DNA of 64,000 nt from Verrucomicrobia bacterium UBA3783 (GCA_002369235.1 DFFF01000013.1:5150-69149), one strand, 5' to 3'; shown: positions 6,022 to 55,625, numbered from the stretch's first letter. Notes: a model not told the origin generated them from the letters alone. Program-made: numbers and translations.

Positions 6022-6030
6022 CGCGATTTT

Positions 6031-30564: not shown

Positions 30565-30566
30565 AT

Positions 30567-32102: not shown

Positions 32103-32112
32103 TCAGTGCATT

Positions 32113-33069: not shown

Positions 33070-34300
33070 CCAAGGCGCTGCGACCGGCCATTTCCGCAGA
33101 ATGGAGGGCTGGAATTATGAAAAAGGCGCTTCGTTTTTCATAACGATAGCAACAGCGCCGCGCCGTGCGCTTTTTGGGCGTATGGCCGGCGGCAAAATGA
33201 TGCTTTCCCCGCTTGGAATTGAGGTTGCGGCATCGCTTGAACGCATGTCAGGCTTGTCGCCGGCGATCAGCCTTTTTGGCCATGTTGTGATGCCGGACCA
33301 TATTCACTTCAATTGTCATCTTGCCGCCGGACTGGAGGCGCCGCTTAAAACGCTTGGCGCCGCCATCAGGAGTTTCAAGAACCATACTACAAAGGTGTAT
33401 AAGGCTATGCTCGCGAACTCGGTTCGCGAGCCTGCACTGCACTTCCCATCTCCCGCCAGTGCAGGTGTGCGCGATTCCTCTCCCGCCAGTGCAGGCGCGC
33501 GCGATTGCCATTCCGCCAGTGCAGGTGCGCTCGATTCCCCTCCCGCCAGTGCAGGTGCGCTTGATTCCCCTCCCGCCAGTGCAGGTGTGCGCGATTCCTC
33601 TCCCGCCAGTGCAGGTGCGCTCGATTCCTCTCCCGCCAGTGTAGGTGCGCGAACCATGTTCGCGCACACCCTATGGCAGCGCGGCTACCACGACCATCTT
33701 TGTCTTTCGCGCCGCTTCATAGATGCCACAGAACGCTATATCGCTTACAACCCGCTAAAGTGGCAGCTTATGCACGGTCCTGGCGCCGTGCGCGTAGTGG
33801 AACCGGTTTTTTCTCCGCGCCTCGACCCTGGCGATTATTGGAAAGCGGCAGGCAACCTCGCACTTATCGCGCTGGAGATTCCGCTGGTTTCGCTGCGCGT
33901 TTCGCGCGAGGTTGCCGATTTCGCTCCGGTTCTGGCGCGGATGCGCACCGCCGCCGAGCGCGGCTACGCAATCGCGAGCGGCTTTATTTCCAAAGGAGAA
34001 CAGGCAGTGCGCGATATGCTCTGCCATCTGCCGCAAGGCCGTCTTGTGCGTGTCAGGCCGTCGGCAATCCCCAATGCGCGCTTCCGGCCTGAAAGTATTT
34101 ATGTTCGCGCCATGTCCGAGGGACGGTATCTCGAGCTCGGGAAAGGCAATGAAGACTTTGATTTCTCGCGTTCGGCGTGTTTGGACGTAAACCGCGAGAT
34201 TATCGGCATGGCGGCGGCGGGGCGCGGTCTCTCGCTGTATTTCAGAAAAGACGGACTCTACAAACTCTCTGGCGGCGGACAATGGCGAAAAACAAGGTAG
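33053..34300 (+). CDS. RAYT-like HUH tyrosine transposase (IS200/Y1 superfamily) with internal repeat insertion and ~165-aa C-terminal extension
   Basis: HUH 'GHVVMPDHIHF'. Y-motif block 'LWQRGYHDHLCLSRRFIDATERYIAYNPLKWQLMHG' matches the REP-associated tyrosine transposase signature. An alternative start at 33101 would avoid overlap with the GT2 gene. Confidence 0.6.
   Translation: MVAADNQGAATGHFRRMEGWNYEKGASFFITIATAPRRALFGRMAGGKMMLSPLGIEVAASLERMSGLSPAISLFGHVVMPDHIHFNCHLAAGLEAPLKTLGAAIRSFKNHTTKVYKAMLANSVREPALHFPSPASAGVRDSSPASAGARDCHSASAGALDSPPASAGALDSPPASAGVRDSSPASAGALDSSPASVGARTMFAHTLWQRGYHDHLCLSRRFIDATERYIAYNPLKWQLMHGPGAVRVVEPVFSPRLDPGDYWKAAGNLALIALEIPLVSLRVSREVADFAPVLARMRTAAERGYAIASGFISKGEQAVRDMLCHLPQGRLVRVRPSAIPNARFRPESIYVRAMSEGRYLELGKGNEDFDFSRSACLDVNREIIGMAAAGRGLSLYFRKDGLYKLSGGGQWRKTR
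33451..33652 (+). repeat. in-frame 30-bp tandem repeat (6 full + 1 partial unit) inside the RAYT-like CDS
   Basis: 'tcccgccagtgcaggtgcgcKcgattcctc' repeats encode 'PASAG(A/V)RDS(S/P)' decapeptides. Units differ by 1-4 nt. Confidence 0.9.
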
Positions 34301-35886
34301 AGGATTTACAGAGCAAGAAGGTCTGTGCAGACTCGCGAACCCTGTTTGCGGGCGCCGGCGGGCAAATGACGCCGCAATCTGCGCCGATCCGCGAGTTCCA
34401 GCGCCGCAAGCTTGCACAACTGCGCACGGCCAGTTTCGCTCCGTCGCCTTATGAAGGCAAAGTGACTTTGCTTATCTACACCTTTCCTCAAAATCCCGAC
34501 GGCGCGGACTTCGATTGGATAGAGTTTTCGATTTTGCAGAGCTGGTCGGTTTTGGGCAAACTCAAGACGGTCATCGTGGCGAACTCCCGTTTTGCCAAAT
34601 TGGACGCATTTGCCGCCGTTCATCCGGAAGTGGAAATCCAGCTTGCGCCGAACCTGAAGCCCGGCGACTTGGATTCGATGAGCCGGGATATGCTCGCGAA
34701 CTTGTGGCGGCGGTTTTCCACCCCGGAGGTGCTCGTGATCCAGGACGACGGATTTCCGCTCGGCGGCAATCTCGGCGATTTTCTCGGCAAATTCGATTTC
34801 ATCGGTGCGCCGATTTATGCGCCCGGTCTGCGCCGCAAGCTCTTTTATGCCGTCCATCTCCCCTGCTTCAACGGCGGCTTTTCGCTGCGCTCGCGGCGTT
34901 TTTGCCGCTATGTATCGCGTTTCTGGTGCCTCTTCGCCAGATTTTTCATCCGCCCGGGGTCTTTCCTTTCCGGCGAAGATGTCGTATTCTGCTTCCTCTC
35001 CAGATTGAATCCATACGCCTACTTCAAATTCAAGATGCCCGGAGAGCGTGATGCATTGCGTTTTTCCGTCGATACCCTCGGCGGCATTTTGCCTTTGCCC
35101 GGGAAGCGTCCGTTCGGCTTTCACGGCAAAGCGACTTTCGACGCGCTCGAAAAACGGAAAACCGGCAGGCTTGACGAGGTGACGGTTCTCGCGTATCACT
35201 TCTGGGATGAGGCGCGATATGAAAGCGAGTTTGCCCGTCTGGCGCATTCTTTCGAGGAGACTTGGCGATTTTGCGGGGAACTGGAAAGCGTCATTGTGGC
35301 CAACAAGGTGGAGAAGTGCCTTGAGGATTTTGCCGCCGCGCACCGCAATCTGAAAATTCAAGTCGAGCCTTCGCTCGTTCCAGGCAGGATTTTCACGATG
35401 AGCGCCGATATGAACGGCAAGTTGTACACGCGTTTCAATACGCCTTATGTCCTGATAATTCAGAACGACGGCTATCCGCTGCGCTCCGGACTTGAGGAGT
35501 TTGTCGGCAAATGGGATTTCATCGGTGCGCCGTATATTGGACTTCAGTGGTGGAAGCGGCTTGTCGCCGGACTTGCGAACTACCATGTGCAAAACGGCGG
35601 CTTTTCGCTTCGTTCCCGCGAAATCTGCGAGGCCGCCGCCAAGCTCTGGAACGAAAAATACCGCAAACTCGGTGATTGCACTGCGGCATCGGAGGATATT
35701 TTCTACACTTCTACGCTTGTGAGGAGAGAGCCCGCATACCGGCGCAAATTCCGCTTTGCGACAAGTCGCGAGTCGCTGGAATTCTCATGGGATGCCAGCG
35801 TTCCGGTTCCCATGCCGTCAAAACTCCCGTTCGGCTTTCATTGCGACAAGTCGCTCGCGGCGCTGAATCTTCGCCATGCTGTTTAA
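34282..35886 (+). CDS. internally duplicated putative glycosyltransferase-like protein (two ~230-aa homologous halves)
   Basis: Both halves share 'VIVAN..', 'VLVIQDDGFPL / VLIIQNDGYPL', 'KFDFIGAPIYAP / KWDFIGAPYIG', 'NGGFSLRSR', 'LPFGFH'. Start uncertain (ORF from 34177; ATG 34282 used). Confidence 0.45.
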   Translation: MAKNKVEDLQSKKVCADSRTLFAGAGGQMTPQSAPIREFQRRKLAQLRTASFAPSPYEGKVTLLIYTFPQNPDGADFDWIEFSILQSWSVLGKLKTVIVANSRFAKLDAFAAVHPEVEIQLAPNLKPGDLDSMSRDMLANLWRRFSTPEVLVIQDDGFPLGGNLGDFLGKFDFIGAPIYAPGLRRKLFYAVHLPCFNGGFSLRSRRFCRYVSRFWCLFARFFIRPGSFLSGEDVVFCFLSRLNPYAYFKFKMPGERDALRFSVDTLGGILPLPGKRPFGFHGKATFDALEKRKTGRLDEVTVLAYHFWDEARYESEFARLAHSFEETWRFCGELESVIVANKVEKCLEDFAAAHRNLKIQVEPSLVPGRIFTMSADMNGKLYTRFNTPYVLIIQNDGYPLRSGLEEFVGKWDFIGAPYIGLQWWKRLVAGLANYHVQNGGFSLRSREICEAAAKLWNEKYRKLGDCTAASEDIFYTSTLVRREPAYRRKFRFATSRESLEFSWDASVPVPMPSKLPFGFHCDKSLAALNLRHAV

Positions 35887-37096
35887 ACTTGCGGATATTG
35901 CGTGTTTCCTGCTGGCCGACACTATTGCCTGGCTGATGACCCCGTTTGCGCGGATTTATCAATATTTCGCGGCCAAGTCCAACCCCGAAAAGCGCAAAAC
36001 GGTATTTATCGTCGCTAACGACCTCCTTGGCGATGCCTTGGTGAGACTGCCTTTTTACATTCACTTGCGCACAATGTATCCGCGCGACCAATACCGCATT
36101 GTCTGCGCCTTGACCGAACCGATCGCCGCGCTTTTCGCACATGGCGACCTGTTCGATGAAATCGTCATCGATAAAAACCTCCATGACAACCATCCCCTGT
36201 TTTGGCTTTTTGGCAGAAGAGGCATTGTCTGCCCGGTGCTTAGATGGGCGTTTGCCAACAAGATCGACGTCTTTATTTCCATGCTGCGCATCAGATCTCT
36301 CGGCTGCGATTTCGTCTGCCGGTTTTCAAGGCCGGAAGTGCGCCTTGCATATTCATACAAGGAAATGACGCGCCTGTTCCCGGTCGTAGCGAAGGCCCAG
36401 AAGCTTCTTTACGACAAAGGCTATTCGCATCTTCTCGAATCTACCATGGGCGTGCACCAGTTCGACGATTTTGCCAAGGTCGAATCTTTCCTGTCCGGAA
36501 AGGCGCTCGCCCGGCCTGTCGCCTGCCCGGAGGCGTGCCGGCAAGCGTTGCGGTTGCCGGACTGCGGCACCGAAACTGGATTTGAAGATTTCGCGGTTCT
36601 CGTGCCCGGCGCCGGCACTCGTTTTCGCCAATGGCCGACGCGCCGCTTTGCGGAGTTGGCGGACAGGCTTGGCGGCAATTTTGTCATCGTCGGGTCCACG
36701 ACTGAGAAAACCTTGGGCGACGAGATCGTCTCCTGTTCCAAGTCTGGTGCAAGATTCGTGAATCTGTGCGGCAAAACATCGTTGGAACAACTTGGGGCCA
36801 TATTGGCGAAAGCATCTCTTGTCGTGACGAACGAAACCGGAACGGCGACGTATGCGGCGGTGATCGGCGCGCCGACTCTCTGCATCCTCGGCGGCGGCGA
36901 TTTCGGCGCATTCTTCCCCAATCCATATTGCAGGAATACGCGCTCGGTCTATCACGAGCAGCCATGCTTTTGCTGCCGGTGGCATTGCACCAAAGGATTG
37001 GCGCAGGATACCGTGGCGCCGTGCATAGATCCGGTTTCGGTTGATGATGTCTATGCGGCGGCAGTCGATTTGCTCAAGAAGGACAGTTGCAGATGA
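35876..37096 (+). CDS. GT9-family ADP-heptose:LPS heptosyltransferase
   Basis: 'VANDLLGDALVRLPFY', 'LVPGAGTRFRQWPTRRFAELADRL', 'LCGKTSLEQLGAILAKASLVVTNETG'. Confidence 0.75.
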   Translation: MLFKLADIACFLLADTIAWLMTPFARIYQYFAAKSNPEKRKTVFIVANDLLGDALVRLPFYIHLRTMYPRDQYRIVCALTEPIAALFAHGDLFDEIVIDKNLHDNHPLFWLFGRRGIVCPVLRWAFANKIDVFISMLRIRSLGCDFVCRFSRPEVRLAYSYKEMTRLFPVVAKAQKLLYDKGYSHLLESTMGVHQFDDFAKVESFLSGKALARPVACPEACRQALRLPDCGTETGFEDFAVLVPGAGTRFRQWPTRRFAELADRLGGNFVIVGSTTEKTLGDEIVSCSKSGARFVNLCGKTSLEQLGAILAKASLVVTNETGTATYAAVIGAPTLCILGGGDFGAFFPNPYCRNTRSVYHEQPCFCCRWHCTKGLAQDTVAPCIDPVSVDDVYAAAVDLLKKDSCR

Positions 37097-38568
37097 AAGA
37101 CGCAAACTCCATAATCGATTCGTTCGCGAATCTCAAGGTGCTGGTGGCGGGGGATGTTCTGCTCGACCGCTTCCATTATGGTGCGGTAGAGCGCATATCG
37201 CCGGAAGCGCCGGTGCCGGTTTTCCGTCCAGTGCGACTTGTCGAAGCGCCCGGCGGGGCGGGGAATACCGCCCTCAATCTTGCTTCGCTCGGCTGCAAAG
37301 TGCGTCTCGTGGGCAGAACCGGCAAGGATTCGCGCGGCGCCCGGCTTGAAACCCTGTTTCGCGCGGAGAAGAAAATCGCCGCCGGCTTCCTCCGTCAAGC
37401 CGATTGCCCGACGATTGCGAAGACCCGCCTGGTGTCGTCCGGCAACCACATTCTTCGCGTGGACGAAGAGCGGATCGTGCCGCTTTCGGACAAGGATGCG
37501 GCCAATGTCGTCAAGACGGTGAAACGCCACATCGAGGCTTGCGACATCGTGGTTTTGTCCGACTACGCGAAAGGCTTTTTGACGCCCGCTTGCACCCGGC
37601 GGATTATCGCGGCGGCGGCGAAATGCGGCAAGATGGTGGTCGTCGACCCCAAGGGCAAAGACTACGGGAAATATGCCGGTGCGACCTTGGTGAAGCCGAA
37701 CCTGAAGGAGTTTTCGGAGGCGACCGGCAAGACCTTCAACCCTGCGAGCGAAGATTTCCGCCCCGGTCTCATTCGCGCCGCCCGCGATTTCCTCAAGGAA
37801 ACCGGGATAGGGTCGCTGCTCATTACGCTCGGCGAACAGGGGATGCTCTACGTGCCGTCGGAAAATCCGGTCGCCGGCGCGAAATATCTGCCCACCAGAA
37901 CCAAAGAGGTTTTCGACGTCTCCGGCGCGGGCGACACCGTCATCGCCGCGCTTGCCGCCGCCTTGGCCGCCGGTGCGCCGATGGCGGATGCGATGCAGAT
38001 CGCGAATGCGGCGGCGGGAGTCGTAGTGTCGAAAGTAGGCACGGCGACGGTCGCCGCCGCCGAACTCAAGGCGGCATTGACCGATGCCGCAGGCGATCCG
38101 CTGCGCAAGGTGCTTCCAGTCGATGCGCTCAAGCGCGAATTGGCGCGGCTCAAGCGGTCGGGGAAGAAGATTGGTTTCACGAACGGCTGCTTCGACTGCT
38201 GCCATCTCGGACATTTGACTTCGCTCAAAGCGGCAAAGCGGCTGTGCGACATCCTCGTCGTTGGCGTGAATACCGACGCCTGGATCCGCAAGCACAAGGG
38301 CAAAGGCCGTCCGGTTCAGGACGAAGCGACGCGGCTCGCGCTCCTGGCGTCGCTCGAATATGTGGATTACGTCGTGCCGTTTGGCGAAGAGACGGCGTTG
38401 CCGCTCGTGAAGAAGCTGCGCCCGCAGGTCATCGCTAAAGAAGGCTATGCGCTTGCGGACTGGCCGGAAGGACGGTTTGTGGAATCCATCGGCGGCGCAG
38501 CAGTCGCCCTCAAGCGCGTCGAGGGCTATTCCACCACGGCGATTGTCGAAAGGCTGGCGAAACAGTGA
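37087..38568 (+). CDS. hldE: bifunctional D-beta-D-heptose 7-phosphate kinase / heptose 1-phosphate adenylyltransferase HldE
   Basis: Ribokinase-like N-terminal half ('VSGAGDTVIAAL') and cytidylyltransferase C-terminal half ('TNGCFDCCHLGHLTSL'). Confidence 0.85.
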   Translation: MQMKDANSIIDSFANLKVLVAGDVLLDRFHYGAVERISPEAPVPVFRPVRLVEAPGGAGNTALNLASLGCKVRLVGRTGKDSRGARLETLFRAEKKIAAGFLRQADCPTIAKTRLVSSGNHILRVDEERIVPLSDKDAANVVKTVKRHIEACDIVVLSDYAKGFLTPACTRRIIAAAAKCGKMVVVDPKGKDYGKYAGATLVKPNLKEFSEATGKTFNPASEDFRPGLIRAARDFLKETGIGSLLITLGEQGMLYVPSENPVAGAKYLPTRTKEVFDVSGAGDTVIAALAAALAAGAPMADAMQIANAAAGVVVSKVGTATVAAAELKAALTDAAGDPLRKVLPVDALKRELARLKRSGKKIGFTNGCFDCCHLGHLTSLKAAKRLCDILVVGVNTDAWIRKHKGKGRPVQDEATRLALLASLEYVDYVVPFGEETALPLVKKLRPQVIAKEGYALADWPEGRFVESIGGAAVALKRVEGYSTTAIVERLAKQ

Positions 38569-39038
38569 GACGCGCCCTGTTTCTCGACCGCGACGGCACG
38601 ATAAACGTCGATTACGGCTATGTCTTCGAGCCGGAGAAATTCGTGTTCATCGATGGCGTCTTCGAGTTTTGCCGGGAAGCCCGGAAGAAGGGTTATCTAA
38701 TCATCGTTGTCACCAATCAAAGCGGAATCGAGCGCGGATATTTCAGCGAAAGGGATTTCGACGCCATAACCAGGCATATGGTGGCGAAGTTCGCCGAAAA
38801 CGGCGTGGCGATCGATGACGTCTTTTATTGCCCAAGCCTCTCCGGCGAAGACCGCAAGCCCAAGGCGGGCATGTTCCTCAAGGCGCAGGCGAAGTGGAAT
38901 ATCGACATGGCAAATTCGCTGAATATCGGCGATAAGGAACGCGACCTTGAAGCGGGAAGGGCGGCAGGCGTAGGCGTGAATATCTTGTTCAAGGGCGATT
39001 ATGGTGCGCTCATGCCATATCTTCACGACGCAAATTGA
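38565..39038 (+). CDS. gmhB: D-glycero-D-manno-heptose 1,7-bisphosphate phosphatase GmhB (HAD-IIIA)
   Basis: 'LFLDRDGTIN' DxDxT motif, 'VVTNQSG', 'GDKERD'. Confidence 0.8.
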   Translation: MRRALFLDRDGTINVDYGYVFEPEKFVFIDGVFEFCREARKKGYLIIVVTNQSGIERGYFSERDFDAITRHMVAKFAENGVAIDDVFYCPSLSGEDRKPKAGMFLKAQAKWNIDMANSLNIGDKERDLEAGRAAGVGVNILFKGDYGALMPYLHDAN

Positions 39039-39050
39039 AAGGGTGCAGGA

Positions 39051-39671
39051 ATGAAACCGACGACAAACGCGATTTTCGGGTCTCTTTTCGAACGCTACCC
39101 CGCATTGTCGGCATGCCGCGATGGGGTCATGGCCGCGTTCGAGACTTTGCTTTCCGTGTATGCCCAAGGCGGCAAGGCGCTCATTTGCGGCAATGGCGGC
39201 AGTGCGGCGGATTGCGAGCATATTGCGGGCGAGCTGATGAAAACCTTCAAGAAACGCCGCCCCTTGCCTGCGGATATCGCATCGAAACTTCCGCCTGGAC
39301 TCGCATCGAAACTGGAGGCGGCATTGCCTGCGATTTCACTCGTTTCGATGACGGGCATAATGTCGGCTGCGGCGAACGATGTGTCGTGGGAGGTGGCTTT
39401 TGCCCAGCAAGCGCTCGGCCTCGCGAAGAAGGAAGACGTGCTTATTGCCATATCGACGAGCGGAAACAGCGCAAATTGCGTTGCGGCGGCGGAAGTCATG
39501 AAGGCGATTGGCGGCAAAACGGTCGCTCTCACCGGCGAAAATCCCTCGAAACTCGCTGAAATCTGCGATATTGCGATAAAAGTGCCGGCAAGCGAGACTT
39601 ACCGGATTCAAGAGCTGCACCTGCCGGTCTACCACACGATTTGCGCAATGCTCGAAGAAGAACTGTTTTAG
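39051..39671 (+). CDS. gmhA: phosphoheptose isomerase GmhA (SIS domain)
   Basis: 'ALICGNGGSAADCEHIAGEL', 'LIAISTSGNSANCV'. Confidence 0.8.
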   Translation: MKPTTNAIFGSLFERYPALSACRDGVMAAFETLLSVYAQGGKALICGNGGSAADCEHIAGELMKTFKKRRPLPADIASKLPPGLASKLEAALPAISLVSMTGIMSAAANDVSWEVAFAQQALGLAKKEDVLIAISTSGNSANCVAAAEVMKAIGGKTVALTGENPSKLAEICDIAIKVPASETYRIQELHLPVYHTICAMLEEELF

Positions 39672-39680
39672 TCGGGGAAC

Positions 39681-39832
39681 TCTTTCCTTCGTAGTGTAGA
39701 TTTCTCGACTTCGTAGTCCAGCCTCTTTTCCTTCGTAGTCTAGGCTTCTCGACTTAGAAGTCCAGGCTTCTAGACTTAGAAGTCCAGCTCTCTAGACTTG
39801 GTAGGGCGGCCTTCTAGACTTGGCAGGGCGGC
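39681..39832. repeat. family-A intergenic repeat element (copy 2)
   Basis: Same unit and orientation as 9968..10079, with extra 'cttctagacttagaagtccag' sub-repeats. Confidence 0.6.
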
Positions 39833-39955
39833 AATCCCATCTCTGTGCATCGCGGATGCTTGCGCACCCTTCGGGTTTGGCTTCGCCAAATCTGCCTCAG
39901 CCCTCAGCCCTAACTTATTGGATATTGGATGCTGGCTGTTGGATATTGGATATTT

Positions 39956-40050
39956 GCACATTCAACACCGTCTCGACCTCCGTAGCCTTGGCGTAGGAGG
40001 TTCTCGACCTCCGTAGCCTTGGCGTAGGAGGTTTCCCGTTTTTCCGCCGC
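39956..40050. repeat. family-B repeat element; left arm of inverted pair flanking the giant gene
   Basis: 'gcacattcaacaccgtctcgacctccgtagcc' (39956..39987) is the exact reverse complement of 46698..46729. Internal 'ctcgacctccgtagccttggcgtaggagg' is duplicated. Preceded by a 'ttggatattggat' x2 direct repeat. Confidence 0.6.
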
Positions 40051-40085
40051 AAAAATTTCCTAGAAATCACTTGAAAAAAAAAAAA

Positions 40086-40094
40086 TGCTATACT
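40086..40094 (+). promoter_or_regulatory. extended -10 TGCTATACT preceded by A12 tract
   Basis: 'gaaaaaaaaaaaaTGCTATACTatcggg'. About 130 nt upstream of the giant-gene ATG. Confidence 0.45.
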
Positions 40095-40110
40095 ATCGGG
40101 CAGTTGTTCA

Positions 40111-40197
40111 TATTCCTGCACTGTACTTGGAACAAGCGTTTAGTTTCGTAGCGGTTATCTAGGCGTTTTATTTGCTTCCAAGTACAGTGCAGGGGTA
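40111..40197 (+). promoter_or_regulatory. 5'-leader hairpin: 18-bp perfect stem (22 bp with wobbles) enclosing a 43-nt loop
   Basis: 40115..40132 'cctgcactgtacttggaa' is the exact reverse complement of 40176..40193. The Shine-Dalgarno 'agagagga' (40209..40216) lies just downstream. Confidence 0.5.
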
Positions 40198-40224
40198 TGA
40201 ATTGAAAAAAGAGAGGAAAAGATT

Positions 40225-43200
40225 ATGCAAAACGTTGCCAGGAAAACAATTCGCATGGTCATGAAAATCGCGCGCACCGTCGCGCTACTACTCGCCGTCG
40301 GCGCGGCTGGCGGAGCATGGGCAGATACGCCGTCATTGCTCAACTACATGAGCTTCGATAACACGGCTAATAAGGGTGTCGTCATACAGAAAGACGCAGG
40401 CACAATTGACCCAGTTAAGATAGATGGTGATTATGTCAATTACACAACAACTGACAATGCAAAGTTCGGAAACCATGCTTACCAAGCCAATAATGGTACT
40501 ATCGGGCTTCAGGATAACGATTCTGGCCTAGTCTCAAATGATGGTGGCTGGACTATCAGCTTTTGGTTCCATCCAAATGGCCAGTCCAACTGGAACTCCT
40601 TTTTTGGTTTCGGGTTGTTCAATGGGGACAATTATTTCTTTGTGAAGAATGGTAGCAACGCTTTCATTATCTACAAAGATACCACGTCAACAGATGATAG
40701 CGCACTTGGAACGCCTGCTCTAGGAGCTGTATCATATACGGCGTCGGCTTGGAATCACGTTGTGCTGGCATGTGCGGCTGGCACCGGCACCGTGACGCTT
40801 TATGTAAATGGTTCGTCGTGCGGTTCATTCACAATTGCAACTGACACATCCCTTCGAGAAGTGCTTTTGTGCCGCGGTCGCTGGCATAGCGATTCCAGCT
40901 CAGCATTTTATCGCAACAAGCAAACAACCTGGTTCGACGACTTCGCGCTGTTCGGCGGTGCTCTGACGCCATCGGCTGTCAAGACGATAGCGATGGGTGC
41001 GGATACTGCGCTTGGCCTCTACAATGCCGGCGAGTTAAACTTCTCTCGTTCTATCAATGTCAACTTCTATTATCTCTACAGTGGTAGTACGCCGTACACG
41101 GCTGTTTCCTTGGGCAACAATGGAACTGCCGCAGTGAACTCCAGCAGCGAAGGTTACGGCCAATACGCGGTAGAAGGTACATACTGGTCGGATGTGCTTG
41201 CAACGAGCACGGCGGCGCAAAGCGTAAAGGTGTTTGATGGCTCTGCCACATCTGATTCCACCGTCACTGCGACGATATCTGGCGCCAATGGCGGTGATTT
41301 CACGCAAAGCGCCTTCGATCATCATATCATGAGCGGCTACATTTCCGACTCGTCATCAAAGCTTGAGCCGACCGTCACATTTGCCAACATACCCTTTGCA
41401 AACTATCGGGTAGTGCTATATTTTGCCGTCAGTGGAGGCTCTGCCAGCAAGAAATACGGCTATGTCACGCTGAACGATACGATCAATGTCGCGGGCAACG
41501 GCAGCACGACCATATATGGCGATGGAGGAGCGACGGGATGGGGCGGCGCAGCAGTTGCAGCAAACAGTAAGAACAACATACTCCTCGGTCAGAACACGCT
41601 TGTTTCGCCTGTAATTGTAAACAATGCATCGGGCACTCTCAAAGTAAAAAGCCACGCGCTCTATAGCGGCAACACTGCTACATACTATGCAGGCCTTGCG
41701 GCAATTCAGATAGTCGAAGTTACGCCGAATTCAACTACGGGCACATATACATTCTCTCCCGCTGCCGATACGACGACTGCAATAACAAGTTCCTCAAGCT
41801 GGGATGACCTTCCTACCGGCAAGGGCGAAGATATAACTATTTCCATTTCAGGCGATGCGACGATTAATGTTGATAGGGATATGGCGTTTGGTACGATCAC
41901 GATTGCGAGCACCAGCGAAAGCGCGGCGACGCTAACTTTCGCTGGCTCGTGCCTCATCAACGCCACGCAAGTCAATGTCCCTGCCAATGTCACGGTGAAG
42001 TATGCTTCGTCCGTTTCCGGTGGCGCACCAATTATCAATGCGCCTGTCGTGCTCAACGATGCCACGGCCGCATTGGAAATCGCCGCTCCGGCGACGATGG
42101 CAAATGCGATTTCCGGTTCCGGCGAGGTCGTCGTATCCGCGAATGCAGTCGTGTTTACTGTTAAGAATACTTTCACAGGCGGTCTCACCGTGAAGAGCGG
42201 CGGCCTCGCAAAGACAACCGTCGCGGCGACAACAGGCGGCGGATTCGGTGGCACTGGAACAAATCCACAAGTTGGAACAATTACAGTAGAGAATGGCGGT
42301 ACCGTTGACGTCGCGAATTGCTATGGCAAGTGCGTGTATTCGCTCACAATCGAAGGTGATGGCGTGGATAATCAAGGGGCTGTCATTTGTTCATCTGCAA
42401 TAGGTGAGACCGAAAGGCAAATTACAGGTATTACGCTTACGGGAAACGCGTCGATTTCTTGTGCCAACAACTGGGGGCTTATCGCAAACGAATATACTGC
42501 AACAACCTTGTCATTAGGGTCTTATACACTCGAAAAGAAAGGCTCTGCGGCATTTTGGCTTACACGCACAACAGTGAGCGGTACGGGAACTTTGGATATC
42601 AAGGAAGGCATACTTGCTACAGGCGGTGCCACAAGCGGTACTTTAAATACAAGGGGCAATTGGACATATACAAGCAATTCGTCCGCACCTATCGTCATAC
42701 GAAATGGCGCCGCATTGACGGTCAACAATGCATCGTTGCGGGCAGATTCACTTACACTTGATTCCGGCAGTTCCATGAGTGTTGGCGGCGGCGCGTATGC
42801 GCTTGTCAACAATTCTGGCACATTGACTGCAAACGGCTCTGTTTCCGTAGCCGGAACGCTTTATATTGGCTGGAGCGGCAACGCCAGTTTCGTCGTCGGC
42901 TCCGACGTTGAAGTTACGGGCACAGGGCTTATTCATTTGATGTCAACCGCAACCATTACCAAGCAGGCGAGTGGCACGATCACCATCGGTCCTAATGCGA
43001 TGGTGCGGTGGATAGACTGCTCGTGGACTAACGAAAATGCTGGTGACATATTCAGGGGAGATGGAACATTGAGTTTGGAGGGAACTGGAGGAAACTATTC
43101 GTACTATCCAGATCCGTGTGCGTTTCCGGGAACGCTGAATGTAGTTACCCGAAACGGCACCTCCGATTACCACGCATATTACGCATACTTCAGTGGCGAC

Positions 43201-46200
43201 CCAAGTAAATTCACGGCAAGACCAAAGCTTCTTTTGGCTTGTGGAACGGAAGCGGATACTGGAAGTGTCCAGCTTGGAAGTCCAGCGCTTGGCAAAACGA
43301 TGAGCGTACGCGATTTGAATGGGCATGCTGTTATTTATCCTTGGGCAAGCAGCTCTGGCACGTTTACAATAGATACGCTTCAAAGGTCGGACACATCCTT
43401 CAACGGCATATTCGTGCAATATGCTGCTAATCAAGGTATTTCTGCGCTGACAGTCCGTGGCGAAACGGAAGCGACGCAGACGCACAGCCTTACGCTAACG
43501 AAGGCAAGCACGACTACTGGCGCCGCGACTGTCTGCGACAACGCGAAACTTATCTTCACCTCTTCCGGCTCGTGGGCGAACGGTACGGTGTCTGTTGCCA
43601 ATGGCGGGTATCTGGAAGTGAACAACTCCGACCCTGTCGCTTCGACGCTCGATTTGCAGTCTGGCGGCACGATTACAATCAAGACTGTCACGACGACAAC
43701 AACGACTGGAGAAGGCGACGAGGCCGTGGAAGAAACGACGACGAGCGTAGTGCCGATAGCGGCCGGCACGGTGACGTTCCCGGATTCCGGCGAGGCGGTG
43801 ATCGACATCTCTGCAATTCCCGATCTTGCTTCCAAAGAAAGCGTGGCAATAATCAACGCGACGACGTCGCTTGATTCGGACGTCTCGAAGATTCGTCTTA
43901 TCGGCAAGCCCTACTCGCTGAAGGTCGATGGCAATGCGCTCAAGGTCGTGAACGATGGCGGTCTTGTCTGGGATTCTGCGAAAGGCTGGGGTGAGAAGGA
44001 TGCCGCGAAATATGACGAGGCGACGATAACTTCGCCTGGCACGGTCGCGCTTGACGGCACGAGCCTCGCGTTCGATAAATTGACTCTCGCCGGCTCTGGC
44101 ACGGTCTCTTTCTCGCGGACCGGCGACGAGACGATTACGGTGAACAACATCGTTATTGGAAGCGGCGTGACTCTGGATGTGTCGGCGGCGCTGAACATAT
44201 CGGCTGGAGCGAGAATAACCGGCGACGGAACGCTGAACATTCCGAACGGCGTCACTCTTACGCTCGACGGCGTGACATGCTCTGCGAAGATAACCGCGCA
44301 AAACGGCGGCACTCTCGTAACGAAGGGCGCGACGGAGCTCTCTAACGATAACAACAACTTTGCATATGGCAGCCTTATCAAGGTCCTGACTGGCACGGCG
44401 ACGGTCAATGCGCATTTTAGTGCGTATAATTCTGCCGGTCGTGGTTTCCACGGCAACATCACGATTGCCGAAGGCGCGACATTCGTGAACAGCAAGACGG
44501 AATCCTTCGACTGCAACGCCGATTCGTCGCATCCGATTGTCGTCGATGTCTATGGCACTCTTTCAATGGGTTCGACCCGCTGGACGCTTGGCAACTACAA
44601 CACGATAAAGTTGCACGAAGATGCGACGATTACGGGTGAGGGAGATTCCTCATCTAACGGTGCGCTTAACGGTGCGCTCGATGTCGAGAACAATGTCACG
44701 ACATTCAAGATTATCGCGGACGGCAACGCGACGATACCCGCCAATATCCGAACCCGTAGCAAGATGCTTGTCGAAGTGTCCAACGGAAAGAATCTGACAT
44801 TCTCTGGGTCGCTTATAAGTTATGGCGATGGCAGCATCATGGAAGTAGTTTCCGGCCAAGTGACTACGACTACGCTGCCGGGCTTCAAAGTCAAGATCGA
44901 CGAAGGCGCGACATTCACGCTGAAGGATGCCGTATGGTCAGGTTCTACCGCCGACAAGTTCTCCGGCACAGGCACGCTGGAGTTGTATTCTGCGACCGCG
45001 TCCAAGGAGCATACGGCGACAGGTTCGACATTTGCCGGCATTGTCAAGTTCTCGAACGAAGGGGACAACCAGTGCAACATCAAGCCGTCAGGAGCCGCGA
45101 TGTTCACCGCGAGACCCGAATGGATCGCGAATGCATCAAGCATCCACCTTGGCGACGCCTCCAGCTACTACAACAATCTGGAGCACCCGATTCAAATCAG
45201 GAACTTGTCCGGCTCCAGTTCGGCCACGCTGAGAGCTGTGTATGGTGGCGCACTCTACAACTTCCTCATAGAGACTGTGCAGGAACGCGATACAGAATAC
45301 GCCGGCGAATTCACGCAAGGCGAGGCAACCATCAACTCCCAAAAAGTTGGGCGTTATACCAACCTGAAAGTCTTGGGCAACAATGCAAACGAGGTCCACA
45401 CCCTGACATTGTCGAAAGCGCAGAATACCGGAAACAATGTAGGACATTATGCAAGCACGTTGACGGTCTCAGATTACGGCAAGGTCAAGTTCACGTCCGT
45501 AGCAGGATGGGGGAACGGAACAGTAATCGTTGGAGCGAACGGCTATCTAGAGTCGTCTAGTTCTGCGGAATCCATTGCGGCGACGCTGACGCTGCAGGAT
45601 GGCGCGACGGTGGTGCGTGGTTCGCAACCTGTCAAGGCGACGGCGCTGACAGCGCTTGATGCCAATGCGACAATCAAGATTGCTTTTGCTGATGGCGTTA
45701 CGCCGGAAGATGGCATGGTCGTGTTGAGCGGCACTTGGGCTACAACACCACCGGATGCGGCGCGCTTTGCGTTCGCAAATTGGTTTGCATATGATGCTTT
45801 GTATGAATTTGAAGTTACCTCAACTGCCGTAAATATTAGGGAAAAGACAGAGACTGTTAGTGTTGATGAAACACCCATTACAGTCGGGTATCCCTGGATA
45901 GCGACAGCACAACGGAATACAACCCAAACGCCAGGTGCTAATTTGAACGACCTTGCGGATCTAAATACATATCTTACAAACAATGGTCTCAACGGCATGC
46001 CGCGTGCGGTGTCGTACCTGCTGGGGCTTGAGAATCCCGACGATGCGACGACGGCGTTTGTAATGGAGTCGGCGAGTGTTTCGTCGGGTGAGGGCAACAC
46101 TCCCGTTCTCACCTTCACGGGTAAGTCATATTCGACCGACCGAGCTACAGTGACATACAAGGTATTCGGCGGCGATTCGCCTGACAGTATGAGTGAAGTC

Positions 46201-46299
46201 ACTCCGGATAGCAATTCTGGCAATGTAATAACAGTGACAGTTCCCACGGAGTCGAGAGTTAAATATTATAAGTTGGAAATGACTGTCACGCCGAATTAA
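40225..46299 (+). CDS. 2,024-aa secreted giant protein: signal peptide + LamG/concanavalin-like lectin domain + long Thr/Ser/Gly/Asn-rich parallel beta-helix-type repeats
   Basis: Sec signal 'IARTVALLLAVGAAGGAWA'. LamG-like block ('WTISFWFHP', 'TVTLYVNGSSCG', 'WFDDFALFGG'). Downstream repeated 'G(T/S)xT(L/V)xxxG' beta-solenoid segments with an obvious internal duplication ('HSLTLTKASTTTGAATVCDNAKLIFTSSGSWANGTVSVANGGYLE' vs 'HTLTLSKAQNTGNNVGHYASTLTVSDYGKVKFTSVAGWGNGTVIVGANGYLE'). No PEP-CTERM and no autotransporter barrel. Confidence 0.8.
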   Translation: MQNVARKTIRMVMKIARTVALLLAVGAAGGAWADTPSLLNYMSFDNTANKGVVIQKDAGTIDPVKIDGDYVNYTTTDNAKFGNHAYQANNGTIGLQDNDSGLVSNDGGWTISFWFHPNGQSNWNSFFGFGLFNGDNYFFVKNGSNAFIIYKDTTSTDDSALGTPALGAVSYTASAWNHVVLACAAGTGTVTLYVNGSSCGSFTIATDTSLREVLLCRGRWHSDSSSAFYRNKQTTWFDDFALFGGALTPSAVKTIAMGADTALGLYNAGELNFSRSINVNFYYLYSGSTPYTAVSLGNNGTAAVNSSSEGYGQYAVEGTYWSDVLATSTAAQSVKVFDGSATSDSTVTATISGANGGDFTQSAFDHHIMSGYISDSSSKLEPTVTFANIPFANYRVVLYFAVSGGSASKKYGYVTLNDTINVAGNGSTTIYGDGGATGWGGAAVAANSKNNILLGQNTLVSPVIVNNASGTLKVKSHALYSGNTATYYAGLAAIQIVEVTPNSTTGTYTFSPAADTTTAITSSSSWDDLPTGKGEDITISISGDATINVDRDMAFGTITIASTSESAATLTFAGSCLINATQVNVPANVTVKYASSVSGGAPIINAPVVLNDATAALEIAAPATMANAISGSGEVVVSANAVVFTVKNTFTGGLTVKSGGLAKTTVAATTGGGFGGTGTNPQVGTITVENGGTVDVANCYGKCVYSLTIEGDGVDNQGAVICSSAIGETERQITGITLTGNASISCANNWGLIANEYTATTLSLGSYTLEKKGSAAFWLTRTTVSGTGTLDIKEGILATGGATSGTLNTRGNWTYTSNSSAPIVIRNGAALTVNNASLRADSLTLDSGSSMSVGGGAYALVNNSGTLTANGSVSVAGTLYIGWSGNASFVVGSDVEVTGTGLIHLMSTATITKQASGTITIGPNAMVRWIDCSWTNENAGDIFRGDGTLSLEGTGGNYSYYPDPCAFPGTLNVVTRNGTSDYHAYYAYFSGDPSKFTARPKLLLACGTEADTGSVQLGSPALGKTMSVRDLNGHAVIYPWASSSGTFTIDTLQRSDTSFNGIFVQYAANQGISALTVRGETEATQTHSLTLTKASTTTGAATVCDNAKLIFTSSGSWANGTVSVANGGYLEVNNSDPVASTLDLQSGGTITIKTVTTTTTTGEGDEAVEETTTSVVPIAAGTVTFPDSGEAVIDISAIPDLASKESVAIINATTSLDSDVSKIRLIGKPYSLKVDGNALKVVNDGGLVWDSAKGWGEKDAAKYDEATITSPGTVALDGTSLAFDKLTLAGSGTVSFSRTGDETITVNNIVIGSGVTLDVSAALNISAGARITGDGTLNIPNGVTLTLDGVTCSAKITAQNGGTLVTKGATELSNDNNNFAYGSLIKVLTGTATVNAHFSAYNSAGRGFHGNITIAEGATFVNSKTESFDCNADSSHPIVVDVYGTLSMGSTRWTLGNYNTIKLHEDATITGEGDSSSNGALNGALDVENNVTTFKIIADGNATIPANIRTRSKMLVEVSNGKNLTFSGSLISYGDGSIMEVVSGQVTTTTLPGFKVKIDEGATFTLKDAVWSGSTADKFSGTGTLELYSATASKEHTATGSTFAGIVKFSNEGDNQCNIKPSGAAMFTARPEWIANASSIHLGDASSYYNNLEHPIQIRNLSGSSSATLRAVYGGALYNFLIETVQERDTEYAGEFTQGEATINSQKVGRYTNLKVLGNNANEVHTLTLSKAQNTGNNVGHYASTLTVSDYGKVKFTSVAGWGNGTVIVGANGYLESSSSAESIAATLTLQDGATVVRGSQPVKATALTALDANATIKIAFADGVTPEDGMVVLSGTWATTPPDAARFAFANWFAYDALYEFEVTSTAVNIREKTETVSVDETPITVGYPWIATAQRNTTQTPGANLNDLADLNTYLTNNGLNGMPRAVSYLLGLENPDDATTAFVMESASVSSGEGNTPVLTFTGKSYSTDRATVTYKVFGGDSPDSMSEVTPDSNSGNVITVTVPTESRVKYYKLEMTVTPN

Positions 46300-46326
46300 T
46301 TAACCACATTTAGTCGTTATTTGCTA

Positions 46327-46359
46327 GTCGCGGCGGTTTGAATAAATCCGCCGCGACTG
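46327..46359 (+). terminator. hairpin after giant gene (11-bp GC-rich stem, no U-tract)
   Basis: 'agtcgcggcgg-tttgaataaat-ccgccgcgact'. Confidence 0.4.
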
Positions 46360-46405
46360 CGGTCTTGTCAAAGCGTCGAACGCCTCCCTACGCATGGCAA
46401 CAAGA

Positions 46406-46575
46406 TTTCACCCAATGCGTTTTCACTTTTCACCCAGTCGATTTCGTTTTTCACCTGGTCAATTTCATTTTTCACCTGGTCAATTCCGCTTTTCACCCAA
46501 TGAGTTTTCACTTTTCACCCAGTCGATTTCGTTTTCCACCCAATGCGTTCCGTGTGTTCCGCGTATTCCGTGGTT
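46406..46575. repeat. non-coding tandem array of ~21-22-bp units (about 7 units)
   Basis: Units: 'cacccaatgcgttttcactttt', 'cacccagtcgatttcgttttt', 'cacctggtcaatttcattttt', 'cacctggtcaattccgctttt', 'cacccaatgagttttcactttt', 'cacccagtcgatttcgtttt', and a decayed unit. Confidence 0.8.
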
Positions 46576-46629
46576 AATATCAAACCCGCCGAAGGCATCC
46601 CAAGAAACTCTGCGTCTCTGCGTCTCTGC

Positions 46630-46729
46630 GTTAAAAAAAAAAAAACACAGGGAACCTCCTACGCCATCCTCCTTCGCCAAGGCTACGGAGGACAAGTGGC
46701 TACGGAGGTCGAGACGGTGTTGAATGTGC
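46630..46729. repeat. family-B repeat element; right arm, inverted
   Basis: Reverse complement of 46698..46729 equals 39956..39987 (32/32). Also shares the 'ttggcgNaggagg' block and a poly-A/T tract (A13 at 46633). Confidence 0.6.
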
Positions 46730-46780
46730 CTCTGTGTGGTTGAAATTCTCCGGCGACGCAAGAAAGTTAGATTAGGCTAT

Positions 46781-46809
46781 TGACTTTGCCGCGTCTAATA
46801 TGATATAAT
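46781..46809 (+). promoter_or_regulatory. sigma70-type promoter: TTGACT -35, 17-bp spacer, TGATATAAT
   Basis: 'cTTGACTttgccgcgtctaataTGATATAATacgggg'. 37 nt upstream of the ATG at 46846. Confidence 0.6.
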
Positions 46810-46845
46810 ACGGGGCAATCGAATCCAAAACAAGGATAATCAACA

Positions 46846-47850
46846 ATGAAACTAAATACCATCATGGCTCTTGCGGCGGCGGCTTCCATTTCGGGCATGG
46901 CTTTCGCTCAGGAGCAGGAAACGGCCCCGGCAACGGCTGAAACCCAGCCTGCGGCGGTGGAAGAAGCCGCTCCGGTCGCGGCGGCGGAAACGTCTGCGGA
47001 GGAAGAGCAGCTCGACGAAGAGGAATGCTCCATCGTCTCGGCGGAGTTCGGCCTCGCGTTCGACTCCAAGTACCTCACTTACGGCGTGGTCGACGGCAAG
47101 GACCCGATCGTCACCCCCAGTGCGACGGTCACTTTCTTCGATACGCTCTACTTCGGCGTCGAGGCGATCTTCGACGTGACGAAGGGCAACGGCAAGCGCG
47201 GCGACTACGGCAGGCGCGCCGGCCAGTGGACGACGCTCGATGCGATCGTCGGCGTTACGCACGACTTCGATCTCGGCGACACGCTCGGTGCGCTCACCGT
47301 GGACGTGAATTACATCTACGAATACATCCGCCGCTACAAGATGCACAACGCCGCCCTCGAGGACAAGTCGATGGACGATACGCAGTATGTCAACCTCGAA
47401 CTCTCCCTGGGCGATCTCTGGTTCGAGCCGACGCTCGCCATCGAGCGCGACATCATGCTCGACAACGGCACCTATGTGAACCTCGAAGTCGGCCACACCT
47501 TCACCGTCATCGGCGAAGAGGATGATCCGGTCGTGACGCTCCGTCCTGCGGTCGGTCAGGGCTGGGGCAATTCGCTGCGCACTCACGGCTACTTCGCCGA
47601 CAGCATGCCCGGCGAGAGCTTCTCGCACGGCGGGCTCATGGATACGTCCTTCTCGCTCACGGCGGAATGGGCGATTTGCGAGTACCTCACCCTGTCGGGC
47701 TATGTCGCCTACTACGACTATCTCTTCGACAGCACGATGCGTGATGCGGCGCGCTACTACAACGGCGTCTGGAATCATCGCGGGCGTGAAAACAACAAGG
47801 GCGACAGCGCCCAGTTCGTCGGCGGCCTCGCGCTCACTGCCAGCTTCTGA
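46846..47850 (+). CDS. putative outer-membrane beta-barrel (porin-like) protein
   Basis: Signal peptide 'ALAAAASISGMAFA'. Acidic Ala/Glu-rich linker. Alternating amphipathic beta-strand pattern. C-terminal 'LALTASF' with terminal Phe. Confidence 0.5.
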   Translation: MKLNTIMALAAAASISGMAFAQEQETAPATAETQPAAVEEAAPVAAAETSAEEEQLDEEECSIVSAEFGLAFDSKYLTYGVVDGKDPIVTPSATVTFFDTLYFGVEAIFDVTKGNGKRGDYGRRAGQWTTLDAIVGVTHDFDLGDTLGALTVDVNYIYEYIRRYKMHNAALEDKSMDDTQYVNLELSLGDLWFEPTLAIERDIMLDNGTYVNLEVGHTFTVIGEEDDPVVTLRPAVGQGWGNSLRTHGYFADSMPGESFSHGGLMDTSFSLTAEWAICEYLTLSGYVAYYDYLFDSTMRDAARYYNGVWNHRGRENNKGDSAQFVGGLALTASF

Positions 47851-47921: not shown

Positions 47922-47957
47922 CTTGTTTTTGCACCATTGCATTCTTGCGCGAATTTT

Positions 47958-47966
47958 GGTATAATA
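47958..47966 (+). promoter_or_regulatory. extended -10 TGGTATAAT upstream of carB
   Basis: 'aaTTTTGGTATAATACaccaaac'. 33 nt before the ATG at 48000; weak Shine-Dalgarno 'ggaaagg'. Confidence 0.5.
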
Positions 47967-52837: not shown

Positions 52838-53591
52838 CGAAAAGGCCGAGGTTCTGGAGAACCGGGAATTTGCCGCCGGATACAGGTATCTGGTGGTTTC
52901 CGCGCCCAGACAGGCGGCGGAAATGCAGCCGGGGCAGTTTGTGCATGTCCGCGTGCCGACGCTGGAGAGGTCGGCGTTGAGGCGCCCGTTTTCCGTCTTC
53001 AACGCCGGGGACGGCAAGGTCACGGTGCTTTACAAGACGGTCGGGCGCGGCACCGAGGCGCTCTCGAAGGTGAAGGCAGGCGAATTCGTGAATATGGAAG
53101 GGCCTTTGGGCAAGGGATTTCCGCTTTCCTGCAAGGGTACGGCGTTTTTGGTCGGCGGCGGATTCGGCGTTGCGCCGCTCTATTTCCTCGCCCGCCGCTT
53201 GCCGAAGTCGATTCTTTTTGTGGGCGGGCGCACCAAGGATGATCTGCTGGCGCTCGACAGATTCGCGGAGATCGGAGTGGAGGCGCGGATTGCCACGAAC
53301 GACGGCAGCGCCGGCGAGAAGGGGTTCGTCACCGGTCCTCTGGATGCCGCGATCAACGAGTTCCGCGCGAAGGGCGAGGAGTTTGAACTTTTCACTTGCG
53401 GACCGGACGGACTGCTCAGGGCGGTCACCGAGCGTGCGCTCGAGCTCAAGGTCCCCGGCTGGATCAGCGTGGACCGTCACATGATCTGCGGCATGGGGGC
53501 GTGCTTTGCGTGCATCCAGAAGACGGTGCGCGGCAATTCGCGCTGCTGCATCGAAGGCCCGGTTTTCAAGGCGGAGGAACTCGTATGGTGA
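52827..53591 (+). CDS. pyrK: dihydroorotate dehydrogenase electron-transfer subunit PyrK
   Basis: FAD/NAD-binding fold and a 2Fe-2S Cys cluster 'CGMGACFAC...RCC'. Confidence 0.8.
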   Translation: MKHDEKAEVLENREFAAGYRYLVVSAPRQAAEMQPGQFVHVRVPTLERSALRRPFSVFNAGDGKVTVLYKTVGRGTEALSKVKAGEFVNMEGPLGKGFPLSCKGTAFLVGGGFGVAPLYFLARRLPKSILFVGGRTKDDLLALDRFAEIGVEARIATNDGSAGEKGFVTGPLDAAINEFRAKGEEFELFTCGPDGLLRAVTERALELKVPGWISVDRHMICGMGACFACIQKTVRGNSRCCIEGPVFKAEELVW

Positions 53592-55602: not shown

Positions 55603-55625
55603 ACGATTTTCCGGAGGGAGGCTTT

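Follow-up and report, generated by a model that had tools for sequence, protein, structure and literature searches.

Does an exact inverted repeat around a gene mark that gene as the cargo of a mobile element? This question is raised by a 6.8-kb unit within a stretch of 64,000 nucleotides from Verrucomicrobia bacterium UBA3783 (GCA_002369235.1 DFFF01000013.1:5150-69149; hereafter the window, with positions counted from its first letter), in which the gene for a giant, putatively secreted protein of 2,024 residues is flanked by two copies of a 32-bp sequence in opposite orientation. An initial annotation of this DNA had interpreted the unit as a cassette delimited by arms that resemble miniature inverted-repeat transposable elements (MITEs) or REPINs (hairpin-forming doublets of repetitive extragenic palindromic, REP, sequences). 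We report that the 32-bp inverted repeat arises from two oppositely oriented copies of a mosaic intergenic module and not from transposon ends, and that the locus is a variant of two familiar themes, i.e. mosaic repeats akin to REPs and bacterial interspersed mosaic elements (BIMEs), and a replacement-type locus whose cargo resembles a beta-helix adhesin. In a genome rich in repeats, a gene enclosed by an exact inverted repeat need not belong to a mobile element, and it is the comparison with a sister strain that locates the real points of exchange.

The 32-mer GCACATTCAACACCGTCTCGACCTCCGTAGCC, located at 39956-39987, recurs on the opposite strand at 46698-46729 with 32 of 32 positions identical, a match that occurred in none of 100 dinucleotide-preserving shuffles of the window, and these are its only copies in the window (n = 2) even when 3 mismatches are allowed. 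Inward of the 32-mer, 39972-40000 pairs with 46668-46696 at 90% (29 nt) and, further inward, 40020-40043 pairs with 46643-46666 at 88% (24 nt). Because this looser complementarity extends past the 32-mer, the arms are about 88 nt long. The bracketed unit comprises 6,774 bp with one complete gene inside. We found no direct repeat beside the arms (the left flank ends in GGATATTT, the right flank begins with CTCTGTGTGG) and no transposase-like open reading frame (ORF) inside the unit, its seven longest alternative ORFs having no meaningful Pfam match; flank reading and Pfam scan thus confirm that target-site duplication and internal transposase are both lacking, as the initial annotation had stated. 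The structured leader, giant ORF, hairpin and 21-bp array that it had described were all found at the locus (Table 1), while its promoter fared less well: a -10-like element can be read from the sequence, but a consensus scan did not list it.

Alignment of the arms with copies in a sister strain (contig L015, GCA_017394665.1) and in contig L023, an unrelated locus downstream of a FadL-type gene, revealed both arms to be copies of a composite module of intergenic DNA. This module consists, in order, of TATTGGA heptamers, GCACATTCAACACCG, one to three 31-nt hairpin units, TTCCCKG, a homopolymer run and CTCTGCGT octamers, the hairpin unit being TCTCG or ACTTG followed by a 26-nt hairpin. The unit enters both arms at the identical point, after CACCG, and from the module/unit boundary in the alignment the 32-bp identity is therefore made up of 15 nt of module and 17 nt of inserted hairpin unit. 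Each arm is a module copy that carries the same unit insertion. The left arm contains two identical 31-nt units in direct tandem, and in the right arm one unit (46668-46696) is nested within another (46646-46714), as is a further copy at L023 12700-12742; the nested units suggest that the hairpin itself was the site of an insertion or of a templated duplication. The module copies in L015 are devoid of the hairpin unit and read GCACATTCAACACCG directly followed by TTTCCCGTTTT (TTTCCCG after the core).

These copies also show that an inverted arrangement is no constant feature of the module family. L015 carries the 15-mer core three times within 5 kb, all in the same orientation, and L023 contains two full modules in direct tandem with a 209-bp period, both with the exact 32-mer. 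Further arm copies were thus found in direct or tandem orientation and not as inverted pairs, which is the outcome that the initial annotation had itself named as speaking against its cassette, and its description of the arms as MITE/REPIN-like ends delimiting a mobile unit does not fit these copies. In a metagenome scan with GCACATTCARCACCGTYTCSHSY, 10 of the 11 matches were due to chance, lying inside unrelated genes mostly of high-GC organisms, and only L023 was real; a search with the hairpin unit using nhmmer over 327 kb of compared sequence detected no additional diverged copies.

Where, then, does the exchange of DNA at this locus occur? Compared with the window from 46751 rightward, L015 and two further contigs, L016 and L017, are 97.7-97.8% and 95.8% identical (L015 97.8%), homology with the sister strain resuming at 46751, ~10 bp past the right module. 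Their slot holds other genes, encoding a 726-aa unknown protein, Fic, DUF2204/DUF6036 and an EcoRI-like methylase with two unknowns, and L016 in turn departs from L015 precisely at the edge of a module. On the left, window 40031-40085 is 100% identical to L015 130-184, the identity ending inside the A-run, and on the right, window 46363-46532 is 80% identical to L015 3040-3209, so that the array 3' of the giant gene corresponds to the one 3' of the 726-aa gene in L015. Moreover, alignment of L015 3020-3060 with L041 6120-6160 revealed that the 3' half of a giant-gene terminator is kept right after the stop codon of the 726-aa gene, without a mismatch to the terminator of the P0002 homologue. 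It is a scar: the slot once held, or alternates with, a giant gene. On the basis of the 40031-40085 identity, the array match and the terminator half in L015, the giant gene shares the slot of the sister strain, and because identity ends at the A-run and inside the terminator, one swap replaced ~40086-46362, with its left (~40086) and right (~46360) breakpoints both inside the arms. The slot is polymorphic, with modules at its junctions. The comparison with a related genome that had been proposed earlier therefore bears out a strain-variable accessory unit with different genes in the sister slot, but not the arms as its boundaries, as this one swap did not run from arm to arm.

Composition points the same way. 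The G+C content of the segment is 0.48-0.55 versus ~0.59-0.60 around it, and at third codon positions (GC3) the giant gene has 0.566 versus 0.733 ± 0.055 (minimum 0.651) for 27 other window genes, marking the segment as a compositionally foreign accessory unit. Metagenome contigs of the same strain, 99.97-100% identical to the window and derived from sheep-rumen samples, support the assembled arrangement: L006 crosses the left junction and L009 the right junction, both in window orientation and from independent samples, and other same-strain contigs break in repeats (e.g. L010, which starts at 46700). The contigs compared gave no indication that the segment had been inverted, and none showed a site emptied from arm to arm. 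The population is represented in the sheep-rumen samples of SRR873607, SRR5322961, ERZ28612948 and ERZ1756086.

We therefore consider it reasonably probable that a chromosomal slot of this rumen Kiritimatiellia bacterium varies between strains in its cargo and that the 6.8-kb unit is one of the alternatives, lying between oppositely oriented module copies and encoding a LamG and beta-helix adhesin-like protein. The cargo is a self-contained transcription unit with its own putative extended -10 promoter, leader hairpin, ORF and probable terminator. Its product would be exported by the Sec pathway, with a lectin domain of the LamG type at the N-terminus, borne on a right-handed beta-helix stalk of ~1,400 residues. 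Two module copies in opposite orientation would each have gained a 31-nt unit after CACCG, creating the 32-bp inverted repeat, and cargo is probably exchanged by recombination, either in the intergenic modules that strains have in common or, following uptake of DNA, in the conserved flanks; an element excised from arm to arm is probably not the route. Since hairpin and T-run face the gene, the arms may in addition insulate it from outside transcription.

Several points weigh against this explanation. The presence of the unit at the identical junction in both arms needs either site-specific insertion or local duplication/conversion, and we cannot tell which. The outer end of the right arm lies within ~10-20 bp of the strain breakpoint, which a delimiting role of the arms would equally predict, and the left junction of the sister strain is out of view, the L015 contig ending inside the module and L007 and L008 ending in repeats as well. 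The copy number and orientation of the module across the genome are judged from L023 and the sister strain, the source genome having stood outside the comparison. Finally, a terminator role of the right arm is speculative, as there is no known minus-strand gene whose transcription would run into it.

Compatible with the variable slot is the proposal that the arms are kept mainly as inward-facing terminators or insulators, shielding a costly gene from read-through from the heptose operon and from antisense transcription. When folded as RNA, the left arm forms a compound hairpin of -37.2 kcal/mol and the right arm one of -34.2 kcal/mol (z about -3.5), in both cases followed by a T-rich run on the strand facing the gene; a terminator scan also picked out the right arm as terminator-like when read on the minus strand, and the L023 module follows the FadL-type gene in terminator orientation. 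On the other hand, the left arm has a break in its T-run (UUUCCCGUUUUU), the right flank is not expected to give rise to a minus-strand transcript and the sister modules do without hairpin units, so we regard termination as a possible but not a favoured main reason for the upkeep of the arms. An actual mobile element, in which the arms serve as terminal inverted repeats of a non-autonomous MITE/REPIN-like cassette of 6.8 kb moved in trans, appears unlikely to us. The perfect 32/32 match, the end of the right arm so close to the strain breakpoint, the foreign-looking composition of the gene and a weakly Y1_Tnp-like ORF (E 4e-4, below cutoff) near the giant-gene homologue in L001 would all agree with such a cassette; it is contradicted by the lack of a target-site duplication and of a transposase among the scanned window ORFs, by the direct and tandem arm sequences elsewhere, by the finding that half of the 32-mer is a separate hairpin unit missing from the sister copies, by the swap that breaks inside the arms and by homologues in other genomes that have no arms. 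Known element classes were rejected on similar grounds: a MITE, as the bracketed unit is 6,774 bp long with a full gene and without target-site duplication, and the other arm copies found, in L015 and L023, are unpaired, direct or tandem; a REPIN or REP pair, as the tandem units of the left arm and nested units of the right are not two inverted REPs with a short spacer; a strictly extragenic REP, as the hairpin unit occurs in frame within four genes of related metagenome-assembled genomes (MAGs); and a composite transposon, as the arms are ~88 nt long and non-coding, with no transposase inside or beside them.

An exact 32-bp inverted repeat could also serve recombination between the arms that flips the gene as a switch, and Logan contig L010 indeed begins at 46700, inside an arm. 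Such a break at the 32-mer is, however, expected from a de Bruijn graph with k ~31 (a value we assume), L006 and L009 cross the junctions in window orientation, no recombinase gene was found nearby among the scanned ORFs and, since the segment includes promoter, leader and terminator alike, expression would stay coupled after inversion. We deem inversion very improbable; its chimeric junctions would read GGATATTT+32-mer+ACTTGTCC and ACCACACAGAG+32-mer+TTGGCGTAGG, also written GGATATTT+32-mer+ACTTGTCCTCC and ACCACACAGAG+32-mer+TTGGCGTAGGAGG. Of still lower probability is an integron-like cassette array with the hairpin modules as attC-like sites. Different cargo genes are parted by imperfect palindromic modules, and ATTCAAC/GTTGAAT within the arm core agrees, by our reading, with the attC core consensus RYYYAAC/GTTRRRY. 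Yet such a 7-mer match arises by chance in a 15-mer at roughly 2% by our estimate, the RYYYAAC-like and GTTRRRY-like heptamers are 6.7 kb apart and not in one attC, the cassettes have promoters of their own (the giant gene a putative -10 element and leader), and neither the scanned window ORFs nor the sister locus contain a tyrosine recombinase.

What kind of protein does the variable slot harbor? The N-terminus of the giant protein consists of a basic stretch, a hydrophobic stretch and AWA followed by D, and reads as a Sec signal peptide (residues 1-33). Residues 101-252 match Laminin_G_3 (PF13385; E 3.9e-11, 43.7 bits versus a Pfam cutoff of 27.6), a profile match that places this part among the concanavalin A-like lectin/LamG domains and is the sole domain found by Pfam. 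NCBIfam returned nothing and a sequence search of the PDB no match; no enzyme family was matched in Pfam or NCBIfam, and neither these scans nor sequence reading revealed a recognisable sorting signal, in line with the initial annotation, which had named none. Two AlphaFold models, built from a 10-sequence alignment and confident from residue 510 onward, are all-beta with short regular solenoid strands and predict a right-handed parallel beta-helix over residues ~510-1890, with four helices at residues 1889-1943 and then a small beta domain of ~80 C-terminal residues. Foldseek agrees with the beta-helix at weak E-values, the closest structures being autotransporter-type adhesins, and gave local matches to pentraxin, the PilC lectin module and CBM35/66 on the low-confidence part of the model. 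Signal peptide, PF13385 and models thus uphold the secreted LamG and beta-solenoid protein of the initial annotation, but its plural internal duplications come down to one detectable pair (residues 919-1097 versus 1556-1735, 28% identity, E 3e-7). Between its two suggestions for the function, the predicted fold favors the adhesin, whereas a lyase-like enzyme finds no family match, although an enzymatic role of the beta-helix is possible.

The predicted architecture differs from that of the type V beta-helical adhesins (Ag43, TibA, UpaB, Vag8, Fap2, HMW1), which it resembles in fold, in that it has an N-terminal LamG domain instead of a barrel or a two-partner secretion (TPS) domain. No C-terminal beta-barrel translocator was found in Pfam, NCBIfam or the modelled C-terminus, and we rejected a type Va autotransporter, as helices and a beta domain of ~80 residues take the place of a 12-stranded barrel. 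The N-terminal TPS domain (PF05860) gave no match, signal peptide and then LamG being located there, and a TpsA protein of two-partner secretion was likewise rejected, there being no haemagglutination activity domain at the N-terminus.

Homologues of the giant protein are few and far between. A word-indexed search of 5.8e9 proteins yielded 9 and phmmer in 1.84e9 representatives yielded 188 (55 at E<=1e-30), all of them long proteins, and the five that we tested have no Pfam domain: the family is rare and without Pfam coverage. With dN/dS (nonsynonymous over synonymous substitution rates) of 0.25-0.27 versus two homologues, the gene is real and under purifying selection. The homologues have low GC3 relative to their own neighbours, and these neighbours encode a DDE transposase, PF09820 or AAA_14/DUF4143 ATPases, or a RelB antitoxin; the sequence of the L041 homologue is a mosaic of 83-89% identical patches. 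Several contigs bearing a homologue (L002-L005 and L041) barely exceed the gene (6.2-9 kb), which fits assemblies broken by repeats or multi-copy genes. The giant protein had no match in IMG/VR, and a phage tail-fibre origin is therefore unsupported. A literature search found no paper joining Kiritimatiell* with LamG, and a general search gave community surveys only. Judging from the models and these patterns, the giant protein is most likely a diversifying, horizontally exchanged surface or extracellular glycan-binding adhesin. These results place a rare giant beta-helix family without Pfam coverage at a hypervariable surface-related locus of uncultured rumen Kiritimatiellia, a location that makes the family a candidate source of differences between strains in how they attach to fibre, mucus or other cells.

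The 31-nt hairpin unit extends well beyond this locus. Together with flanking TTCCCYG heptamers it occurs in frame in housekeeping genes of related Kiritimatiellia MAGs (L011 7173-7220, L013 7423-7472, L014 1580-1629 and L012 2645-2694), three of these genes belonging to ruminal_MAG_11 and one to RGIG6712. The in-frame unit adds GTSYAKATEVETGN to an ScpB tail, an NtrC-type linker and an RseP loop, and in another frame PPSPRLRRSR to a glycosyltransferase; the RseP loop with the unit is 16 residues longer than that of the solved Aquifex RseP, and a doubled 41-aa peptide query for the in-frame unit matched one 51-aa protein. In IMG/VR, 41 stretches of G+C content 0.36-0.71 carry CCGTAGCCTTGGCGAAGG; these viral or prophage copies (L030-L074, e.g. 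L036 3879-3896 and 3986-4003) have the loop CCGTAGCCTTGGCG(N)AGG, and IMGVR_UViG_3300037755_001324 has at least 5 hairpin copies. Across 46 distinct copies, there is covariation at the stem positions that lie outside the fixed core, with 87% and 96% paired versus 46% and 56% after shuffling (0 of 2,000 shuffles reached the observed values), with three Watson-Crick pair types at each covarying position and pairing that stops after 6-7 bp. Directly 5' of the stem C-Y-T-G is conserved (G in 42 of the 46 copies) and the 3' side is free. The viral hairpin copies have no Rfam family, and a literature search found no paper with the loop string. Likeness of the loop to 16S helix 45, 5S rRNA, signal recognition particle RNA and sequencing adapters was dropped, as the matches are only partial and the unit is present in independent same-strain assemblies.

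We tentatively propose, while considering it open to real doubt, that the 31-nt unit represents an undescribed family of tiny hairpin elements that crosses phyla, with the loop GTAGCCTTGGCGNA, a covarying 6-bp stem, a 5' C-Y-T-G and apparent site-specific insertion. From the sequences, its insertion sites appear to be beside TTCCCYG heptamers, in its own loops and, in frame, in housekeeping genes. If this is true, the 32-bp repeat would mark two sites at which a mobile hairpin inserted, either independently or by copying, the hairpin may be moved by an enzyme of the HUH/Y1 type, and the targeted modules may be a recombination substrate that shuffles the cargo of the slot. A truly mobile hairpin could matter more than the locus itself, as it would be among the smallest known elements and a new example of selfish DNA tolerated by proteins. 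As a separate observation, a 362-aa ORF at L001 34-1122 combines the weak IS200-like Y1_Tnp match mentioned above with a C-terminal winged helix; it is located upstream of the giant-gene homologue that is closest in sequence (76% identity), at a distance of 7.6 kb, and could encode an enzyme like the REP-associated tyrosine transposases (RAYTs).

The modules, the hairpin unit and the slot can each be compared with known systems. Like the REPs and BIMEs of enterobacteria and pseudomonads, the modules are intergenic mosaics of short motifs with a palindromic unit, located 3' of genes, strain-variable and often terminator-like. They differ in sequence and phylum and contain tandem arrays of 7-, 8-, 21- and 22-mers, no RAYT gene was seen among the scanned window ORFs and the palindromic unit is also present in coding genes, where REPs are not known to occur. 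With the REPIN/RAYT system the hairpin unit shares its small size, the conserved tetranucleotide (here C-Y-T-G) directly 5' of the stem and dispersed copies. A REPIN is made of two inverted REPs and measures ~100 bp in all, whereas here the units are in tandem (left arm) or nested (right arm) and inverted copies are 6.7 kb apart; of a RAYT there is only the sub-threshold Y1_Tnp match in another genome (L001). The asymmetry of the hairpin unit recalls REP and IS200/IS605 ends, a lead only. Rickettsia palindromic elements resemble the unit in that they are found in frame in housekeeping genes, at permissive loops and tails such as the ScpB tail, NtrC-type linker and RseP loop here, but they belong to another phylum and are ~100-150 nt long, versus 31 nt plus flanking heptamers, and the loop of the present unit is common to contigs of very different G+C content. 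The slot itself is akin to replacement-type flexible genomic islands, with conserved core flanks (synthesis of the lipopolysaccharide (LPS) core, carB), unrelated cargo in close strains, atypical composition and surface-exposed or defence-related cargo. It differs from them in that its junctions are structured modules and that one swap ends in a terminator hairpin and a homopolymer run.

Table 1. Features of the bracketed unit and its surroundings (window coordinates)
Feature	Position	Strand	Remarks
Heptose operon, conserved left flank	35876..39671	+	GT9 heptosyltransferase, PfkB kinase + cytidylyltransferase fusion (HldE-like), HAD phosphatase (GmhB-like), SIS isomerase (GmhA-like)
22-bp tandem array	39683..39832		3' of gmhA stop codon
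TATTGGA heptamer array, outer part of left module	39916..39955	+	Homologous to L015 84-134 and 4651-4708, L023 12624-12654 and 12824-12863
Left arm	39956..40043	+	Core GCACATTCAACACCG 39956-39970, two identical 31-nt hairpin units 39971-40032, then TTCCCGTTTTT
13-A run, then extended -10 TGcTATACT (40087-40095)	40074..40095	+	Putative giant-gene promoter, read from the sequence
Leader hairpin, 26-nt arms	40107..40201	+	dG -56.5 kcal/mol, z -7.1
Giant ORF, 2,024 aa	40225..46299	+	Predicted signal peptide, LamG, beta-helix, helices, small C-terminal beta domain
G+C-rich hairpin 3' of stop codon	46326..46358	+	dG -28 kcal/mol; probably the giant gene's own terminator
21-bp tandem array	46406..46549		6.4 copies over 46406-46542; 80% identical to L015 3040-3209; also downstream of P0002 homologue in L041
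Further module pieces	46576..46645		AATATCAAACCCGCCGAAGGCATCCCAAGAAAC (also in L015, L016, L017), CTCTGCGT x3 (46608-46631), 13-A run (46633-46645)
Right arm	46643..46740	-	ACCACACAGAG, GCACATTCAACACCG, hairpin unit with second 31-nt unit nested in loop, TTCCCTGTG, 13 T
Promoter TTGACT-18-TATAAT (TG before) and 334-aa secreted protein, function unknown	46780..47850	+	First gene of conserved right flank

The slot is located between the heptose (LPS core) operon and the conserved 334-aa gene, which is followed by carB, and the window is otherwise core chromosome, encoding AspRS, HrpB, MutL, FtsZ, FtsA, Ddl, a Mur ligase fusion, LpxC, the heptose operon, CarB, an epimerase, PyrK and a GreA-domain protein; at the corresponding position, the same-strain contig L009 has an annotated MutS. 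No recombinase or transposase was found in any window ORF scanned, the scan having excluded the ORFs at 30468-33069, 53396-58690 and 62281-63984. Regarding the host, a scan of one genome per species with TCTCGACCTCCGTAGCCWYKKSK from the arm hairpin unit gave 4 matches, all in rumen Kiritimatiellia MAGs, and the closest homologue of the 334-aa right-flank protein is annotated as Kiritimatiellae. Rfam has no family for the leader hairpin or the arms. The TGcTATACT of the giant gene is an extended -10 like those of the TTTTTGGTATAAT-type promoters of the window, but a weaker variant.

Among the neighbouring genes, a 594-aa ORF at 25750-27534 combines Mur ligase domains with a MurB C-terminal domain and is an apparent MurC-MurB fusion, and a 30-bp tandem array at 33449-33651 (6.8 copies, 88% matches) lies inside a 415-aa ORF without Pfam domain (33053-34300), where it would encode a 10-residue tandem repeat. 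The intergenic regions of the host consist largely of short tandem arrays with periods of 7, 8, 21, 22 and 31. The 22-bp array family CTTCGTAGTCCAGCCTTCTCGA is located 3' of tRNA-Pro (9958-10079), of gmhA (39683-39832) and of the FadL-type gene (L023 12344-12511), in the last case before the L023 modules. A promoter-like repeat family ending in TTTTTGRTATAAT (extended -10) lies upstream of several genes (6008-6039, 11571-11602, 47934-47965 and 60235-60266). Near tRNA-Val, the TTCCCCG heptamer and GATTTTTC/AATCGAAA octamers form arrays at 58703-58732, 59772-59816 and 60024-60061; these comprise the same kinds of motif as the modules and include a 25-nt inverted pair 1.3 kb apart.

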